Below are positions 2,411-60,637 of a DNA stretch of 64,000 nucleotides, piece by piece. Below the pieces are notes generated by a model. That model had not been told where the DNA came from, searched no databases, and saw only the letters and a program-made list of their open reading frames with translations. This stretch comes from Escherichia coli. GTDB lineage: Bacteria; Pseudomonadota; Gammaproteobacteria; Enterobacterales; Enterobacteriaceae. Position 1 is the first letter of the stretch; the number at the start of each line of letters is the position of its first letter. The stretch is taken from NCBI RefSeq assembly GCF_044324785.1, contig NZ_CP172127.1. One strand, written 5' to 3'. Position numbers and translations under genes: made by a program.

Positions 2411-4066
2411 ATGACTAATCTTCCCCACTGGTGGCAAAACGGCGTTATCTACCAGATTTATCCAAAGAGTTTTCAGGACACCACGGGTAGCGGCACCGGC
2501 GATTTACGTGGCGTTATCCAGCGCCTGGACTATCTGCATAAACTGGGCGTTGATGCCATCTGGCTAACCCCCTTTTATGTCTCTCCCCAGGTCGATAACG
2601 GTTACGACGTAGCGAACTATACGGCGATTGATCCCACCTACGGCACACTGGACGATTTTGACGAACTGGTGACACAGGCAAAATCTCGCGGGATTCGTAT
2701 CATTCTCGATATGGTGTTTAACCATACCTCTACCCAACATGCCTGGTTTCGTGAGGCGCTGAACAAAGCAAGCCCTTACCGCCAGTTTTATATCTGGCGC
2801 GATGGAGAACCAGAAACACCACCGAACAACTGGCGTTCAAAATTTGGCGGTAGCGCGTGGCGCTGGCATGCGGAAAGCGAACAGTACTATTTGCATCTCT
2901 TTGCACCAGAACAGGCGGATCTCAACTGGGAGAATCCAGCGGTACGCGCAGAGCTGAAAAAAGTCTGTGAGTTCTGGGCCGATCGTGGGGTCGACGGGTT
3001 GCGCCTGGATGTGGTGAATCTGATCTCCAAAGACCCGCGTTTCCCTGATGACCTGGATGGCGACGGGCGTCGCTTCTACACCGACGGGCCACGAGCACAC
3101 GAGTTTTTGCACGAGATGAACCGCGATGTGTTTACGCCGCGCGGGTTAATGACCGTAGGTGAAATGTCCTCCACCAGCCTTGAGCATTGCCAGCGATATG
3201 CGGCACTGACAGGCAGTGAATTGTCGATGACCTTTAATTTTCATCACCTGAAAGTCGATTATCCCGGTGGTGAAAAATGGACGCTGGCTAAACCTGACTT
3301 TGTGGCGTTGAAAACATTGTTCCGCCACTGGCAACAAGGAATGCACAACGTGGCATGGAATGCCTTGTTCTGGTGTAACCACGATCAGCCGCGCATTGTT
3401 TCTCGCTTTGGTGATGAAGGTGAATACCGCGTGCCTGCGGCAAAAATGCTGGCGATGGTGCTGCATGGCATGCAGGGAACGCCATATATCTACCAGGGCG
3501 AAGAGATTGGCATGACTAACCCACATTTCACGCGCATTACTGACTATCGCGACGTGGAGAGCCTCAATATGTTTGCCGAGCTGCGCAACGATGGGCGTGA
3601 TGCCGACGAGTTATTGGCAATCCTCGCCAGTAAATCCCGTGACAACAGTCGCACACCCATGCAATGGAGCAACGGCGATAATGCCGGGTTTACGGCTGGC
3701 GAACCGTGGATTGGCCTGGGCGATAACTATCAACAAATCAACGTAGAAGCAGCGCTGGCCGATGAGTCCTCGGTGTTTTACACCTACCAAAAGTTAATCG
3801 CACTGCGTAAGCAAGAAGCCGTCCTGACATGGGGCGATTACCAGGATCTGCTGCCAAACAGCCCTGTATTGTGGTGCTATCGCCGTGAGTGGAAGGGGCA
3901 AACCTTGCTGGTCATTGCCAACCTTAGCCGTGAGACCCAACCCTGGCAGCCAGGGAAAATGCTCGGCAACTGGCAGCTTGTGATGCATAACTACGAAGAA
4001 GCCTCACCACAACCCTGTGCCATGACTTTACGGCCTTTTGAGGCTGTCTGGTGGTTACAGAAGTAA
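2411..4066 (+). CDS. treC: Trehalose-6-phosphate hydrolase (GH13 alpha-glucosidase)
   Basis: 551 aa from internal ATG (MTNLPHWWQNGVIYQIYPKSF...), GH13 motifs (DGLRLDVV, FNHT); longer ORF-track start at 2264 overlaps treB and is rejected. Confidence 0.9.
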   Translation: MTNLPHWWQNGVIYQIYPKSFQDTTGSGTGDLRGVIQRLDYLHKLGVDAIWLTPFYVSPQVDNGYDVANYTAIDPTYGTLDDFDELVTQAKSRGIRIILDMVFNHTSTQHAWFREALNKASPYRQFYIWRDGEPETPPNNWRSKFGGSAWRWHAESEQYYLHLFAPEQADLNWENPAVRAELKKVCEFWADRGVDGLRLDVVNLISKDPRFPDDLDGDGRRFYTDGPRAHEFLHEMNRDVFTPRGLMTVGEMSSTSLEHCQRYAALTGSELSMTFNFHHLKVDYPGGEKWTLAKPDFVALKTLFRHWQQGMHNVAWNALFWCNHDQPRIVSRFGDEGEYRVPAAKMLAMVLHGMQGTPYIYQGEEIGMTNPHFTRITDYRDVESLNMFAELRNDGRDADELLAILASKSRDNSRTPMQWSNGDNAGFTAGEPWIGLGDNYQQINVEAALADESSVFYTYQKLIALRKQEAVLTWGDYQDLLPNSPVLWCYRREWKGQTLLVIANLSRETQPWQPGKMLGNWQLVMHNYEEASPQPCAMTLRPFEAVWWLQK

Positions 4067-45951: not shown

Positions 45952-47229
45952 ATGAATAAAATAAAGAATTATCGATGGCATATGATTGCCCTCGTATGCT
46001 TTATCACTGTAATCAATTATCTGGACAGAACGGCGTTAGGTATTGCGGCTCCAACGATTATGGAGACAACCGGAATAACTAAAGAGCAATATTCATGGAT
46101 TGTCAGTGCATTCCAGTTGGCCTATACATTAGGGCAACCGGTAATGGGCTTCTTTATTGATACCGTGGGTCTGAAGTTAAGTTTTGCGATATGTGCCGCA
46201 ATTTGGGGCCTGGCGACAATGGGCCATGCACTAACCGGAACGTGGTCTGGTCTGGCATTTATGCGCGCCCTGATGGGTTTCAGCGAAGCGTCGGCAATTC
46301 CGGCGGGTGTAAAAACCGCATCAACATGGTTCCCGGCAAAAGAGCGTGGCGTGGCGACAGGTGTTTTCAATATGGGCACCTCACTCGGCGCGATGCTTGC
46401 TCCACCGTTGATTGCCTGGTGCATTATGTTTCATAGCTGGCAATTTGCGTTTATTGTTTCAGGTAGCCTTGCTTTGCTCGCGGCTTTATTTTGGTTCTTT
46501 TGTTATAAAGATCCGAAAGATGCCAAACGCCTTTCTGATGAAGAGCGCCACTATATTGAATCAGGGCAAGAACAGCATCTTAAAACAGATAAGAAAGAAA
46601 AAACGTCAATCAAGCATATCCTCAGCCAACGTAATTTCTGGGGGATTGGCATCGCGCGTTTTCTCGCAGACCCGGCATGGGGAACCATTAACTTCTGGGT
46701 GCCGATTTTCTTCGTCGAAACGCTGCATTTTAGCCTGAAAGAAATTGCCATGTTCGTCTGGCTGCCTTTCCTGCTGGGCGATCTCGGCTGTTTAGCCAGT
46801 GGTTTTGTCGCGAAGTTCTTCCACGATCGCGGCGTGAGTTTAATTAACTCACGAAGAATTACCTTCACTATTGCAGCCGTCATTATGATGACGATTGGCC
46901 TGGTGAGTATTGTCGAAAATCCCTACATTGCCGTATTACTGATTAGTATTGGCGCGTTCTCGCATCAATGTCTTTCTACTGTAGCAGCAACTCTGGGTGG
47001 CGATCTGTTCAAAAAAGACGAAGTAGCTACCGCAGTGGGTATGGCAGGAGCCTGTGCGTGGAGCGGTCAGTTGATTTTCAACCTGTTCATCGGGGCATTC
47101 GTTCACATTATCGGCTTCGCGCCGTTCTTTATTGCCCTGGCTTTCTTTGACATTATTGGTGCTATTGCGTTGTGGACGCTTATCAAAGTTAAAGATGAAG
47201 AACCGCAAGTACAGCTAGCTACCCATTAA
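45952..47229 (+). CDS. MFS transporter, anion:cation symporter (ACS) family, ExuT/DgoT-like
   Basis: 425 aa; N-terminus NYRWHMIALVCFITVINYLDRTALGIAAPTIME and FPAKERG loop resemble hexuronate/aldonate transporters. Confidence 0.85.
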   Translation: MNKIKNYRWHMIALVCFITVINYLDRTALGIAAPTIMETTGITKEQYSWIVSAFQLAYTLGQPVMGFFIDTVGLKLSFAICAAIWGLATMGHALTGTWSGLAFMRALMGFSEASAIPAGVKTASTWFPAKERGVATGVFNMGTSLGAMLAPPLIAWCIMFHSWQFAFIVSGSLALLAALFWFFCYKDPKDAKRLSDEERHYIESGQEQHLKTDKKEKTSIKHILSQRNFWGIGIARFLADPAWGTINFWVPIFFVETLHFSLKEIAMFVWLPFLLGDLGCLASGFVAKFFHDRGVSLINSRRITFTIAAVIMMTIGLVSIVENPYIAVLLISIGAFSHQCLSTVAATLGGDLFKKDEVATAVGMAGACAWSGQLIFNLFIGAFVHIIGFAPFFIALAFFDIIGAIALWTLIKVKDEEPQVQLATH

Positions 47230-53543: not shown

Positions 53544-55295
<1,752 letters not shown>

Positions 55296-56360
55296 ATGAG
55301 TAAAGTGAAAAGTATCACCCGAGAATCCTGGATCCTGAGCACTTTCCCGGAGTGGGGTAGCTGGCTGAATGAAGAAATTGAACAAGAGCAGGTCGCCCCT
55401 GGCACATTTGCGATGTGGTGGCTAGGCTGCACCGGGATCTGGCTGAAATCAGAAGGTGGCACCAACGTTTGCGTTGATTTCTGGTGCGGCACTGGCAAAC
55501 AAAGTCACGGTAACCCGTTAATGAAACAGGGTCACCAGATGCAGCGCATGGCTGGCGTGAAAAAACTGCAGCCAAACCTGCGCACCACCCCGTTTGTTCT
55601 TGATCCGTTTGCGATTCGCCAGATCGACGCGGTACTGGCGACTCACGATCACAACGATCATATCGACGTTAACGTCGCTGCTGCCGTGATGCAGAACTGT
55701 GCTGATGACGTACCGTTCATTGGACCGAAAACCTGCGTTGATTTGTGGATTGGCTGGGGCGTACCGAAAGAGCGTTGCATCGTGGTCAAACCTGGCGATG
55801 TTGTAAAAGTGAAAGACATTGAAATTCATGCGCTTGACGCTTTCGACCGTACTGCACTGATCACCCTGCCTGCCGATCAAAAAGCGGCTGGCGTACTGCC
55901 AGATGGCATGGACGATCGCGCAGTAAACTACCTGTTCAAAACCCCTGGCGGTTCCCTGTATCACAGTGGCGATTCCCACTACTCTAACTATTATGCGAAG
56001 CACGGTAACGAACATCAGATCGATGTGGCGTTAGGATCGTATGGTGAGAACCCGCGCGGTATTACCGACAAAATGACCAGCGCCGATATGCTGCGTATGG
56101 GTGAAGCCCTGAATGCGAAAGTGGTTATCCCGTTCCACCACGACATCTGGTCAAACTTCCAGGCCGATCCGCAAGAAATCCGCGTGCTGTGGGAGATGAA
56201 AAAAGATCGTCTGAAGTATGGCTTCAAGCCGTTTATCTGGCAGGTGGGCGGCAAATTTACCTGGCCGTTGGATAAAGACAACTTCGAGTACCACTATCCG
56301 CGTGGTTTCGATGATTGCTTCACTATTGAACCGGATCTGCCGTTCAAGTCATTCCTGTAA
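55296..56360 (+). CDS. ulaG: L-ascorbate-6-phosphate lactonase (metallo-beta-lactamase fold)
   Basis: 354 aa from internal ATG ([20 protein letters not shown]...), HDHNDH-type metal motif. Confidence 0.9.
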
Positions 56361-56383
56361 TCTGTCGTTTATACCGGATAGCG

Positions 56384-56414
56384 TGGAGTAGTTCGCGCTA
56401 TCCGGCGTAGTATT
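56384..56414. repeat. Palindromic hairpin after ulaG (REP-like or terminator)
   Basis: CCGGATAGCG...CGCTATCCGG inverted repeat. Confidence 0.35.
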
Positions 56415-56467
56415 TCCTGGCTATTTCAAATATCATCTAAAAAAATCAAATTTTATCGGAATAGCTC

Positions 56468-57223
56468 ATGACTGAAGCACAAAGACATCAAATCCTCCTG
56501 GAAATGCTCGCACAATTGGGCTTTGTGACCGTTGAGAAAGTCGTTGAGCGTCTGGGAATTTCGCCTGCCACTGCGCGACGCGATATCAATAAACTTGACG
56601 AAAGCGGCAAACTGAAAAAAGTGCGCAATGGCGCAGAAGCTATTACCCAACAGCGCCCACGCTGGACGCCGATGAATCTGCATCAGGCGCAGAATCACGA
56701 TGAAAAAGTACGTATTGCTAAAGCGGCCTCGCAGCTGGTTAATCCGGGCGAAAGCGTAGTCATCAACTGCGGCTCCACCGCGTTTCTGCTTGGGCGGGAA
56801 ATGTGTGGCAAGCCAGTGCAAATCATCACTAATTATCTACCGCTGGCAAATTACCTGATCGATCAGGAGCATGACAGCGTGATCATTATGGGCGGACAGT
56901 ACAACAAAAGTCAGTCCATCACTTTAAGCCCGCAAGGCAGCGAAAACAGTCTCTATGCCGGGCACTGGATGTTTACCAGCGGCAAAGGGCTGACAGCAGA
57001 AGGGTTGTATAAAACCGATATGTTGACGGCAATGGCAGAGCAGAAGATGCTGAGCGTGGTAGGGAAATTGGTGGTACTGGTTGATAGCAGTAAGATTGGC
57101 GAACGCGCGGGAATGCTTTTTAGCCGTGCCGATCAAATCGATATGCTGATCACCGGCAAAAATGCTAACCCGGAAATCCTGCAACAACTGGAAGCGCAAG
57201 GGGTCAGCATTCTGCGTGTTTAA
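56468..57223 (+). CDS. ulaR: DeoR-family repressor of the ula regulon
   Basis: 251 aa, N-terminal HTH, C-terminal sugar-phosphate-binding domain. Confidence 0.9.
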
Positions 57224-57969
57224 AGATGCTGGCGGAAAAATGTCACGGCAGCATCTAACGCCTCAGGCGTAATGCGGTGACGCACGCCTGGCTGCCATGA
57301 ACAGGTTAGCAGTTTATCCCGTCCCGTCTCGCTTAAGGCCTGCTGCAAACGTAGTGATTCGTCGGCAGGCACGACGTCATCGTCAAGGCCATGCCACAGC
57401 AGTAGAGGTCTGTCAGCAAGTTGTTCCAGGTGGTTTGTCGCTTCCCACTCTGCCAGCGGCGCGACAATGTTATTGAATTCATTCTGCTGTGCTGCCGTTT
57501 CAGGTATCAGCGGTGGAAACAGTGAACGGGCGAGTGATGTAAAATAGCCCGATCCCATCATGCTGGCGGTACATTTCACCGTGGGGTGGCGAGCGGTAAT
57601 TCCCAGTGCCGTCATCGCGCCCATCGACGCGCCACCGACTGCCAGACGGTCAGCAAGCAGCCAGTTTTCTTCGGCTATTGCCGCACGTAACGTAGTGAAT
57701 TCCTGCATACTTTGTAGCAAAATTTGCCAAAATTGATTTAACCGCCGCGCTGCGTCGCCCCTAAAACGGCTACCGTGATCGGGCGCATCCGGCATGATCA
57801 CTCGCAAACCAGCCTGCGCCAGCGCAACGGCAAAATAGCTATACACCAGACTGGACGAAGTAAAGCCGTGATAAAAAATCACGCACGGTAATGGGGTATC
57901 TTTTTGCCCGACAGGATAAGCATGAAGAACGGGAATATCTGCCAGCTCGCGTGATTCTATTTCAATCAT
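57220..57969 (-). CDS. yjfP: Alpha/beta-hydrolase esterase
   Basis: 249 aa, nucleophile elbow GGASMG; convergent with ulaR, stop codons overlap. Confidence 0.85.
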
Positions 57970-58150
57970 CTGTCTCTCCTTTTTGTCTGGTATGACATGA
58001 AGAAATCCTTAGCACAAGTTTCTGCTGGCGGTATTAGTTCATAATGTTGAGATGTGGGTTACGCTTTCATCACGTTTTCATTCGAAAATCGCGTACCAGG
58101 TAACAATTCGGGAACATTCCCCCAAAGTTAAATTAATAAGGCACTACACT

Positions 58151-58480
58151 ATGGTTAGCAGGAAACGTAATAGCGTTATTTACCGGTTTGCCAGTTTATT
58201 ATTGGTGTTGATGTTAAGTGCCTGTAGCGCACTGCAAGGTACGCCACAGCCAGCACCGCCAGTAACGGACCATCCGCAAGAGATTCGCCGCGACCAGACG
58301 CAAGGGTTACAGCGAATAGGTAGCGTAAGCACGATGGTTCGGGGTTCTCCGGATGACGCATTAGCAGAAATCAGAGCGAAAGCTGTCGCGGCAAAAGCTG
58401 ATTATTACGTTGTCGTCATGGTGGACGAAACCATCGTGACAGGACAGTGGTATTCACAAGCCATTTTGTACCGTAAATAA
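58151..58480 (+). CDS. bsmA: Lipoprotein BsmA (biofilm/stress), DUF1471-like
   Basis: 109 aa from internal ATG (MVSRKRNSVIYRFASLLLVLMLSAC lipobox); C-terminal YYVVVM...ILYRK. Confidence 0.8.
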   Translation: MVSRKRNSVIYRFASLLLVLMLSACSALQGTPQPAPPVTDHPQEIRRDQTQGLQRIGSVSTMVRGSPDDALAEIRAKAVAAKADYYVVVMVDETIVTGQWYSQAILYRK

Positions 58481-58628
58481 ATCAGACAACTTACATAGTC
58501 AGCTTTACATTGCTTTGCGTCCCTATGCGTTTACCTGTGCACAATAAATTACCGGCTGGAAGCCTGGGCGTTTATTACCGCGATGGAATGCCCTGCAACA
58601 TGTGGGGAAACGAAAAATGGAGCTGACG

Positions 58629-58904
58629 ATGAAACAATTACTTGCCTCACCCTCGCTGCAATTAGTGACTTATCCTGCGAGCGCCACGGCACAGTCTGCA
58701 GAATTCGCCAGTGCTGACTGCGTGACAGGCCTGAATGAAATAGGTCAGATCTCAGTTAGCAATATTTCAGGGGATCCGCAGGACGTGGAACGTATCGTGG
58801 CGTTAAAGGCTGATGAACAAGGTGCGTCATGGTACCGCATTATTACCATGTACGAAGACCAGCAGCCTGATAACTGGCGCGTACAGGCGATCCTGTATGC
58901 GTGA
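58629..58904 (+). CDS. yjfN: Small periplasmic DUF1471 protein
   Basis: 91 aa from internal ATG (MKQLLASPSLQLVTYPASATAQS...); C-terminal WYRIITM...ILYA. Confidence 0.75.
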   Translation: MKQLLASPSLQLVTYPASATAQSAEFASADCVTGLNEIGQISVSNISGDPQDVERIVALKADEQGASWYRIITMYEDQQPDNWRVQAILYA

Positions 58905-58928
58905 GTGTCATCTACAGCAAATGAACAA

Positions 58929-58959
58929 TGCCGGATGCGGCGCGAGCGCCTTGTCCGGC
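58929..58959. repeat. REP element after yjfN
   Basis: GCCGGATGCGGCGCGAGCGCCTTGTCCGGCC. Confidence 0.5.
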
Positions 58960-59011
58960 CAACAATTTTCACATATTTCATATAGTTAATCGAAACCAGC
59001 GTCGTATACGC

Positions 59012-60637
59012 TTACAAACACACTCCTCCCGTCGCCCGCAGCAATAAATCATTCTGGATCTGCTCTGACAACCGTACGCCGCCGCGCGTATCTAACATCA
59101 CCTGACACCACGCCTGCGCCATTGGCGGAGAGGCATATTTCAACATTTGCGCACCGCAGCCCAGCAGGAATAGCTGATGAGTAATCTCTCGCCCCAGTTC
59201 TTCAGCTGGCTTACGCAGCTGCTGCTGTAAACGACGAACCGCGCGATCAAAATAGCGCTCCTGCCCTTTCACTTCCACAAATGCTTCCGACAATAAGTCG
59301 TATACGCCCGCTTGCTTATTGAGAACGCGCAGCACATCCAGGCACATAATATTGCCGGAACCTTCCCAGATACTGTTTACCGGCATCTCCCGGTAAAGCC
59401 GCGGCAGCTCGCTCTCCTCGCAATAACCAATGCCGCCCAGCACCTCCATCGCTTCGGCCACAAACGGCATACCTCGTTTGCAGATCACAAATTTCGCCGC
59501 AGGCGTAAATAAACGCGCCCACAGGGCTTCTTTGGCATCGGCACGCCGGTCCCACGCTCGCGCAAGACGAAACAGCAACGCCGTTTGCCCTTCAAGCTGA
59601 AGTGCCATGCGACTTAAGACATGACGCATAAGGGGCTGTTGGATCAATGGATTACCAAAAACATGGCGTTGATGTGCATGATAAATCGCCAGCGAAAATG
59701 CACGGCGCATCATGGCATGGCTACCCAGGGCGCAATCAAAACGCGTCATCCCACCCATTTTCAGGATCAGACGAATTCCTTCCCCTTCCTGCCCCAACAA
59801 CCAGCCAATGGCATCCTGAAACTCCACTTCGCAGCTGGCGTTAGAGCGATTACCCAGCTTATCTTTCAGCCGCTCGAGGCGAATCGCGTTGCGTTGCCCG
59901 TCAGGCAAAAAGCGCGGCACAAAAAAGCAGGACAAACCGCCCGTAGTCTGCGCCAGCACCAGATGCGCATCGCTTTGCGGCACCGAGAAAAACCATTTAT
60001 GCCCCACCAGCCGATAAGAGCCATCTTCCAGGCGCTCTGCGCGGGTGGTGTTGCTCATGACATCGGAACCGCCCTGCTTTTCCGTCATTCCCATGCCAAT
60101 CAACAAACCGCGTTTTTGTCCACCTGGCAATAAGTGAGAATCGTAGCGATCGCTCAGCAGCGGGGTGGTCCAGTCCTGAAACAGCGCGGGTAACATCTGT
60201 AACAGCAATGGCGTGGCGGCAAAGGTCATGGTTATCGGACATAACGACCCTGCCTCAACCTGTGCGTGCAACATAAAACGCGCCGCGCGCGCCACAAATG
60301 CGCCAGAGCGAGCGTCTTCTTCCCAGGCCAGATTATGTACCCGATTGGTACATAGCGCCTGCATCAGCAGGTGCCAGGCGGGGTGAAAACGCACATCGTC
60401 CAGACGGCGTCCTTGCGCATCGTAGCGCAATAATTCAGGCGGATTCACATTCGCCAGACGCCCCAGTTCAAGGGATTCAGCCGTTCCTAACTGCTGACCA
60501 ATACTGGCTAGAAAATCGCTATCCCAGCCAGCACCTTCACGCGTTACCGCTTCGCAGAGCGCGCCATCAGACAGGTATAAGTTGCTGTTATTTAATGGTA
60601 TAGGTTGATTAAAAACGGTGTGAGTTTGCCAGTGCAC
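59012..60637 (-). CDS. aidB: AidB, acyl-CoA-dehydrogenase-like adaptive-response protein
   Basis: 541 aa with non-ATG (GTG) start at V7 of ORF-track protein (..HWQTHTVFNQPIPLNNSNLY..), ACAD fold. Confidence 0.9.
   Translation of the reverse strand: MHWQTHTVFNQPIPLNNSNLYLSDGALCEAVTREGAGWDSDFLASIGQQLGTAESLELGRLANVNPPELLRYDAQGRRLDDVRFHPAWHLLMQALCTNRVHNLAWEEDARSGAFVARAARFMLHAQVEAGSLCPITMTFAATPLLLQMLPALFQDWTTPLLSDRYDSHLLPGGQKRGLLIGMGMTEKQGGSDVMSNTTRAERLEDGSYRLVGHKWFFSVPQSDAHLVLAQTTGGLSCFFVPRFLPDGQRNAIRLERLKDKLGNRSNASCEVEFQDAIGWLLGQEGEGIRLILKMGGMTRFDCALGSHAMMRRAFSLAIYHAHQRHVFGNPLIQQPLMRHVLSRMALQLEGQTALLFRLARAWDRRADAKEALWARLFTPAAKFVICKRGMPFVAEAMEVLGGIGYCEESELPRLYREMPVNSIWEGSGNIMCLDVLRVLNKQAGVYDLLSEAFVEVKGQERYFDRAVRRLQQQLRKPAEELGREITHQLFLLGCGAQMLKYASPPMAQAWCQVMLDTRGGVRLSEQIQNDLLLRATGGVCL

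Follow-up and report, generated by a model that had tools for sequence, protein, structure and literature searches.

A shared TTAA at the convergent 3' ends of ulaR and yjfP in Escherichia coli and its conservation across Enterobacteriaceae

The ulaR and yjfP gene ends

The window, which is the whole 64,000-nucleotide stretch of Escherichia coli DNA that was analysed, contains ulaR and yjfP on opposite strands, 3' end to 3' end (ORF list; RefSeq agrees). The product of ulaR is the DeoR-family repressor of the L-ascorbate (ula) regulon. The product of yjfP is an alpha/beta-hydrolase carboxylesterase, and the two genes are functionally unrelated. The junction reads ...CGT GTT TAA AGATG..., in which T57220, T57221, A57222 and A57223 form one TTAA tetramer (Table 1). 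Base 1 of the tetramer doubles as the third base of the last Val codon of ulaR, and base 4 doubles as the third base of the last Leu codon of yjfP. The initial annotation had placed both stop codons on this TTAA, and the sequence and the six-frame ORF list bear it out. Its count of 3 shared nucleotides was an arithmetic slip. The stop codons have 2 nt in common (57221-57222), while the coding sequences overlap by 4 nt (57220-57223). It had also stated that no terminator lies between the genes, which is true by geometry since intergenic DNA is absent.

Table 1. Features at and around the ulaR-yjfP junction, in window coordinates
Feature	Position	Strand	Description	Source
ulaR CDS	56468..57223	+	251 aa, ends ...SILRV, stop TAA 57221-57223	ORF list, NCBIfam, RefSeq
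yjfP CDS	57969..57220	-	249 aa, ends ...FFRQHL, stop TAA = complement of 57220-57222	ORF list, NCBIfam, RefSeq
TTAA tetramer with both stop codons, 4-nt CDS overlap	57220..57223	.		sequence
Inverted repeat AGATGCTGGCG / CGGCAGCATCT	57224..57256	.	adjoins TTAA, inside yjfP 3' coding end	repeat search
C-rich, G-poor stretch, candidate rut-like region for yjfP read-through	56979..57136	-	starts ~85 nt after yjfP stop; antisense to ulaR codons ~175-222	

Short gene overlaps sometimes stem from miscalled gene ends. One of the two stops would then not be a true protein end, and the overlap would be unreal. Nothing was found in favour of such an artefact, and we see practically no chance of it. A stop codon, in contrast to a start codon, leaves no room for ambiguity. 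The alignments of both proteins to curated equivalog models run up to the last residue: UlaR matches NCBIfam NF010034 end to end (1-251 of 251, 485.8 bits) and YjfP does the same with NF007857, esterase PRK10566 (1-249 of 249, 449.6 bits). The C-termini (...RV-stop and ...FFRQHL-stop) are conserved across genera. The equivalog alignments and the conserved C-termini rule the artefact out, and judged by them both gene calls are sound and neither end is miscalled. Start sites are a separate matter in two nearby genes on the + strand. The mechanical ORFs of bsmA (58052-58480, 142 aa) and yjfN (58602-58904, 100 aa) exceed the annotated genes (330 nt and 276 nt), and the true start of each is internal.

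The overlap was already known. It is present in the reference annotation, the class to which it belongs was described in 2007, and the pair has been listed as a convergent excludon. RefSeq has the same 4-nt overlap in strain 18KM2445 and in K-12 MG1655 (yjfP 4416952..4417701, ulaR 4417698..4418453), and of 5426 complete E. coli genomes 5424 carry the 1.8-kb ulaR-yjfP stretch. Fourteen convergent pairs lie in the corresponding 64 kb of MG1655, 12 of them made up of intact genes. Among these 12, yjfP-ulaR (-4) is the sole overlap, and the other eleven pairs are 32-205 nt apart. Apart from yjfP-ulaR, this segment has just one convergent overlap, of 17 nt between the ytfA pseudogene and ytfB, at MG1655 4428079-4428095 (about 46826-46842 in the window if the two are collinear).

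Convergent 4-nt overlaps on CTAA, TTAA, CTAG and TTAG were described by Lillo & Krakauer (2007, Biol Direct, PMC2174442), who found a spike at 4 in the overlap lengths and 58 convergent overlaps in E. coli. About 36% of convergent overlaps are 4 nt or shorter, as calculated from their Tables 2 and 3 (1890 in total, 1218 of at least 5 nt). The ulaR-yjfP pair is a member of this 4-nt convergent stop-stop overlap class, [C/T]TA[A/G], which is common on the scale of whole genomes. The overlap is a fixed gene arrangement rather than a statistical signal.

Conservation of the junction across Enterobacteriaceae

The locus was surveyed by a UlaR scan with one genome per species, and the best 80 Enterobacteriaceae loci were taken. 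A yjfP homologue follows ulaR directly and convergently in 78 of these 80. The two without an adjoining yjfP are an 'Erwinia' MAG and Edwardsiella hoshinae. The 4-nt overlap is kept in 70 of the 78, even where YjfP is down to 57-60% identity. The stops abut in three loci (a MAG, Kosakonia oryziphila and Cedecea), are separated by spacers of 9-12 nt in another three (two Phytobacter and one Kosakonia), and lie within a 14-nt overlap in one (Entomohabitans). One of the 78, from Enterobacter sp. EA-1 (CP025776.1, ~3223-3240), has partial matches and was left uninterpreted. Spacing in the 77 aligned loci runs from a 12-nt gap to a 14-nt overlap, which leaves no room for an intergenic terminator in any of them.

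Two oddities of the survey must be noted. In the Enterobacter sp. EA-1 locus the UlaR match ends at residue 242, the YjfP match covers only residues 27-235, and the apparent TTAA junction is shifted. These may be frameshifts, pseudogenes or assembly errors. An assembly titled Chryseobacterium sp. 18061 (CACSKA010000007.1) carries an enterobacterial ulaR-yjfP locus with UlaR 89% identical, and at the junction it does not differ in sequence from the sibling assembly Citrobacter sp. 18056. It is probably mislabelled or contaminated.

The tetramer was aligned in 72 sequences, which are the 70 species loci, the window and locus L001. TTAA occurs in 48 of them, TTAG in 18, CTAA in 4 and CTAG in 2. 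The inner TA is invariant, and the outer bases have changed repeatedly in separate genera. Each outer base is a synonymous third position in one gene and a choice between TAA and TAG in the other. The last Val of ulaR is only ever GTT or GTC in these 72 sequences, and the last Leu of yjfP is always CTT or CTC. Where the stops abut or are separated, which is so in six taxa, the last Val is GTG in five cases and the last Leu is CTG in three. This is a direct demonstration of the dual codon constraint. The tetramer changes seen are only those that both genes allow, and this is the pattern predicted by purifying selection on two protein ends. Since selection on both C-termini fully explains the conservation, the conservation gives no argument for regulation. 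The present analysis establishes how the junction is built, which genes meet there, that the arrangement is conserved and that its codons are under a dual constraint.

A 4-nt overlap is the tightest packing that leaves both proteins unchanged. One of the stop codons would be lost with any change of the inner TA, and likewise if base 1 became a purine or base 4 a pyrimidine. The arrangement would also act as a ratchet, in that insertions could not part ulaR and yjfP without duplicating the tetramer. The dual stop constraint and such a ratchet would account for the persistence of the overlap across Enterobacteriaceae, and a regulatory role is not needed.

Where the two transcripts could end

Because there is no intergenic DNA, each full-length mRNA continues into the partner gene as untranslated antisense RNA. 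Untranslated antisense read-through RNA is the usual substrate of Rho. The terminators of genes in the overlap class lie necessarily inside the coding sequence of the partner (PMC2174442). For ulaR, a consensus scan of the + strand from the junction to 58600 found no intrinsic-terminator-like site. For yjfP, the closest candidate on the - strand lies ~585 nt into ulaR, at 56635..56622, and has a weak stem of 5 bp. It is unconvincing as an intrinsic terminator. It folds no better than shuffles (z -0.72), and its T-run lies opposite two adjacent Lys codons.

One can imagine that the inverted repeat beside the TTAA is a dedicated bidirectional terminator. Its hairpin would form in both nascent RNAs and would position head-on RNA polymerase collision or termination, with sharp ends at the boundary and little read-through. 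The hairpin is stable in E. coli. It folds with -20.4 kcal/mol (z -4.1) on the + strand and -15.4 kcal/mol (z -2.5) on the - strand, and on the ulaR strand 0 of 200 shuffles are as stable. Perfect stems of at least 8 bp with loops of up to 20 nt are infrequent, at only 0.48 per kb of the window. Wang, Watters, Ju & Liu (bioRxiv 10.1101/2022.10.23.513370) describe bidirectional terminators and programmed RNA polymerase collisions for convergent genes, and their single-molecule work reports that collisions take place at defined positions between the genes only if a stem-loop is present. However, neither strand has a U-tract after the stem at the ulaR-yjfP junction (AACGCC follows on + and UUAAACAC on -), and the terminator scan makes no call there. 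The stem is not conserved beyond Escherichia. There is no covariation in it, with 65.0% of cells paired versus 64.7% in shuffles. Structure at the junction is not in excess across the 72 sequences either, with a median z of -1.17 versus -2.28 for an internal ulaR control, and no Term-seq 3' end is recorded at the hairpin. On these grounds we reject the idea of a conserved element here, be it a hairpin or a bidirectional terminator. A terminator dedicated to this boundary is highly improbable, and the hairpin is probably incidental.

Three other segments were noted in the region. In most of the 72 sequences the internal ulaR control segment (~57016-57066 and homologous positions, 51 nt) exceeds its mononucleotide shuffles in folding stability (median z -2.3), and this may be a composition effect of the G-rich patch. 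The 107-nt ulaG-ulaR spacer contains a 14-bp GC-rich hairpin (CCGGATAGCG...CGCTATCCGG) on the + strand at 56374-56405; it probably terminates ulaG or belongs to a REP-like element. Just after yjfN, at 58886-58960 on both strands, lies a sub-threshold match to Rfam naRNA4, which is REP-derived (29.6 bits, gathering threshold 59.5). It is probably a REP element. An Rfam scan of 55000-59500 gave nothing but this match, which is far from the junction.

The composition of the - strand suggests another way for the yjfP transcript to end. The core of the C-rich stretch (57022-57115) is 105-200 nt past the yjfP stop. It reaches a C-minus-G value of 23 in 78 nt (32 C, 9 G), the highest for any stretch of that length on the - strand across all 64 kb. 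A C-rich patch is found at the same offset in most of the best 80 loci. Read-through from ulaR has a C/G ratio of only 1.1-1.6 at 57549-57820. Thus a C-rich, G-poor untranslated stretch of the Rho type downstream of the stop is present for yjfP read-through only. One might suppose that the antisense patch was selected for its C-richness. The codon positions argue that it is mostly driven by amino acids. In the ulaR sense, G/(G+C) within the patch is 0.69 at codon position 1 versus 0.54 elsewhere, and 0.53 versus 0.49 at position 3. The patch is C-rich mostly because of the amino-acid composition of UlaR, with its G-starting codons. In Escherichia the third codon positions are biased as well, with 20 G to 7 C in the ulaR sense. 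Selection for C-richness is rejected on this analysis, and the patch is kept as a candidate only.

The tables of Adams et al. (PMC7815308) have no curated Term-seq 3' end and no bicyclomycin-sensitive or Rho region from 4416702 to 4425120 of MG1655, and low expression could hide a Rho region. The SMRT-Cappable-seq tables (PMC6131387) have no entry for ulaR-yjfP. The best reading, as predicted from composition, is that Rho-dependent termination probably takes place inside the partner gene. The yjfP mRNA would have a Rho-dependent end with a candidate site in the C-rich patch, from ~85 nt downstream of its stop. The Rho-dependent end of the ulaR mRNA would be more diffuse. Collision of RNA polymerases may contribute to the ending of the transcripts.

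We argue that the junction is the end state of ordinary compaction, held by selection on both protein ends, and that the transcripts end inside the partner gene, probably via Rho, with consequences that are probably minor. We regard this as the likely explanation, and we hold it with good confidence. Within it, the sites and the manner of transcript ending are inferred, and so is the minor scale of the regulatory consequence. Any mutual dampening of ulaR and yjfP would probably be small.

Antisense overlap, regulation and known systems

ExcludonFinder (NAR 2025, PMC12288877) has yjfP-ulaR in its Table 1 among 165 convergent excludons of MG1655. Its criterion for an excludon is that the transcription units defined by RNA-seq overlap in no fewer than 50% of 58 MG1655 samples. 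The mean intergenic distance of its convergent excludons is 95 nt, and its proposed mechanism is transcriptional interference together with RNase III cleavage of overlapping 3' ends. The pair is listed because its 3' ends overlap. Two expressed genes whose coding sequences overlap will receive this call almost automatically. The initial annotation had proposed that convergent transcription could couple ula repressor levels to yjfP expression. The geometric part of that proposal holds, given the 4-nt overlap and the published listing as a convergent excludon. What the listing shows for yjfP-ulaR is only overlapping RNA-seq coverage, and the coupling of UlaR level to yjfP is a proposal.

In a functional convergent excludon there would be reciprocal antisense transcription, and expression of the partner would be lowered either by transcriptional interference or by RNase III cutting the RNA duplex. 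Induction of yjfP would then reduce UlaR and derepress ascorbate utilisation in advance. The place of yjfP-ulaR in the MG1655 'excludome', at 50% or more of 58 RNA-seq samples, is consistent with this, and excludon pairs in general show higher synteny (PMC12288877). The two genes stay adjacent, with spacing close to zero, in 78 of the best 80 Enterobacteriaceae loci, and in the 77 aligned loci this unbroken pattern would fit a selected excludon as well as neutral retention. There is also an RNA polymerase-sigmaS ChIP-seq peak in the bsmA/yjfP divergent promoter region (PMC4447067). Several observations point the other way. The near-automatic call applies to any overlapping coding sequences, and the conservation is already accounted for by purifying selection on two stop codons. 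The locus is absent from the p19 dsRNA capture tables (PMC7373196), which have no entry for ulaR, yjfP, yjfQ, b4190, b4191, ulaG, ulaA or bsmA, although low expression or the construction of the tables may explain this. The SMRT-Cappable-seq tables (PMC6131387) have no entry for ulaR-yjfP. The literature searched turned up no link between a carboxylesterase and ascorbate catabolism.

The autoregulation of ulaR can be argued both ways. Genomic SELEX places a UlaR site upstream of ulaR, in the ulaG-ulaR spacer (PMC5934670), which suggests that ulaR is autoregulated. On the one hand, the level of an autoregulated repressor could respond to small perturbations. On the other hand, autoregulation would tend to buffer small antisense effects. 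Weighing these points together, we think it unlikely that ulaR and yjfP form a functional excludon.

One can also imagine a selected cis switch. Here stationary-phase transcription of yjfP, driven by sigmaS, would cross the 3' third of ulaR in antisense and be halted by Rho on reaching the C-rich patch. This would lower UlaR and prime the ula regulon, and the 4-nt lock-in would then reflect selection for obligatory transcript overlap and not only for the protein ends. We consider such a switch very doubtful. If coupling in cis were true it would add one more validated excludon, in which a stationary-phase esterase is linked to a sugar-acid repressor. That would be useful and unsurprising.

The overlap of ulaR and yjfP has little significance beyond bookkeeping. 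The analysis makes three small additions. The first is a clear comparative view of the way in which an overlap becomes locked across species, with four interchangeable tetramers and restricted Val and Leu codons. The second is that no intrinsic terminator was found that serves ulaR or yjfP. The third is a candidate Rho-loading patch for yjfP read-through.

The junction can be compared with four known systems. The pair ulaR-yjfP is one of the excludons named in PMC12288877, and the mechanism proposed there is the same idea as the coupling suggested in the initial annotation, which is thus already in print at the level of a catalogue. Unlike typical members of that catalogue it has a distance of -4 nt, so overlap of the transcripts is unavoidable and not informative. 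It resembles the systems of bioRxiv 10.1101/2022.10.23.513370 in being a convergent pair with a palindromic stem-loop near the boundary. It differs from them in its stem, which is part of the yjfP coding sequence, lacks A- or U-tracts on its flanks, and shows neither conservation nor covariation. As with Rho-dependent termination in E. coli, read-through past either stop is untranslated and antisense, and a C-rich stretch follows ~85 nt after the yjfP stop. It departs from known Rho terminators in that no bicyclomycin-sensitive region is reported at ulaR-yjfP (PMC7815308) and the C-richness largely mirrors UlaR composition. The closest likeness is to the class described in PMC2174442. The geometry is the same, with both stops in one [C/T]TA[A/G] tetramer, and there is no difference in kind. 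What is added for ulaR-yjfP beyond that description is the cross-species record: four tetramers, an invariant inner TA and the restriction of the last codons to GTY and CTY.
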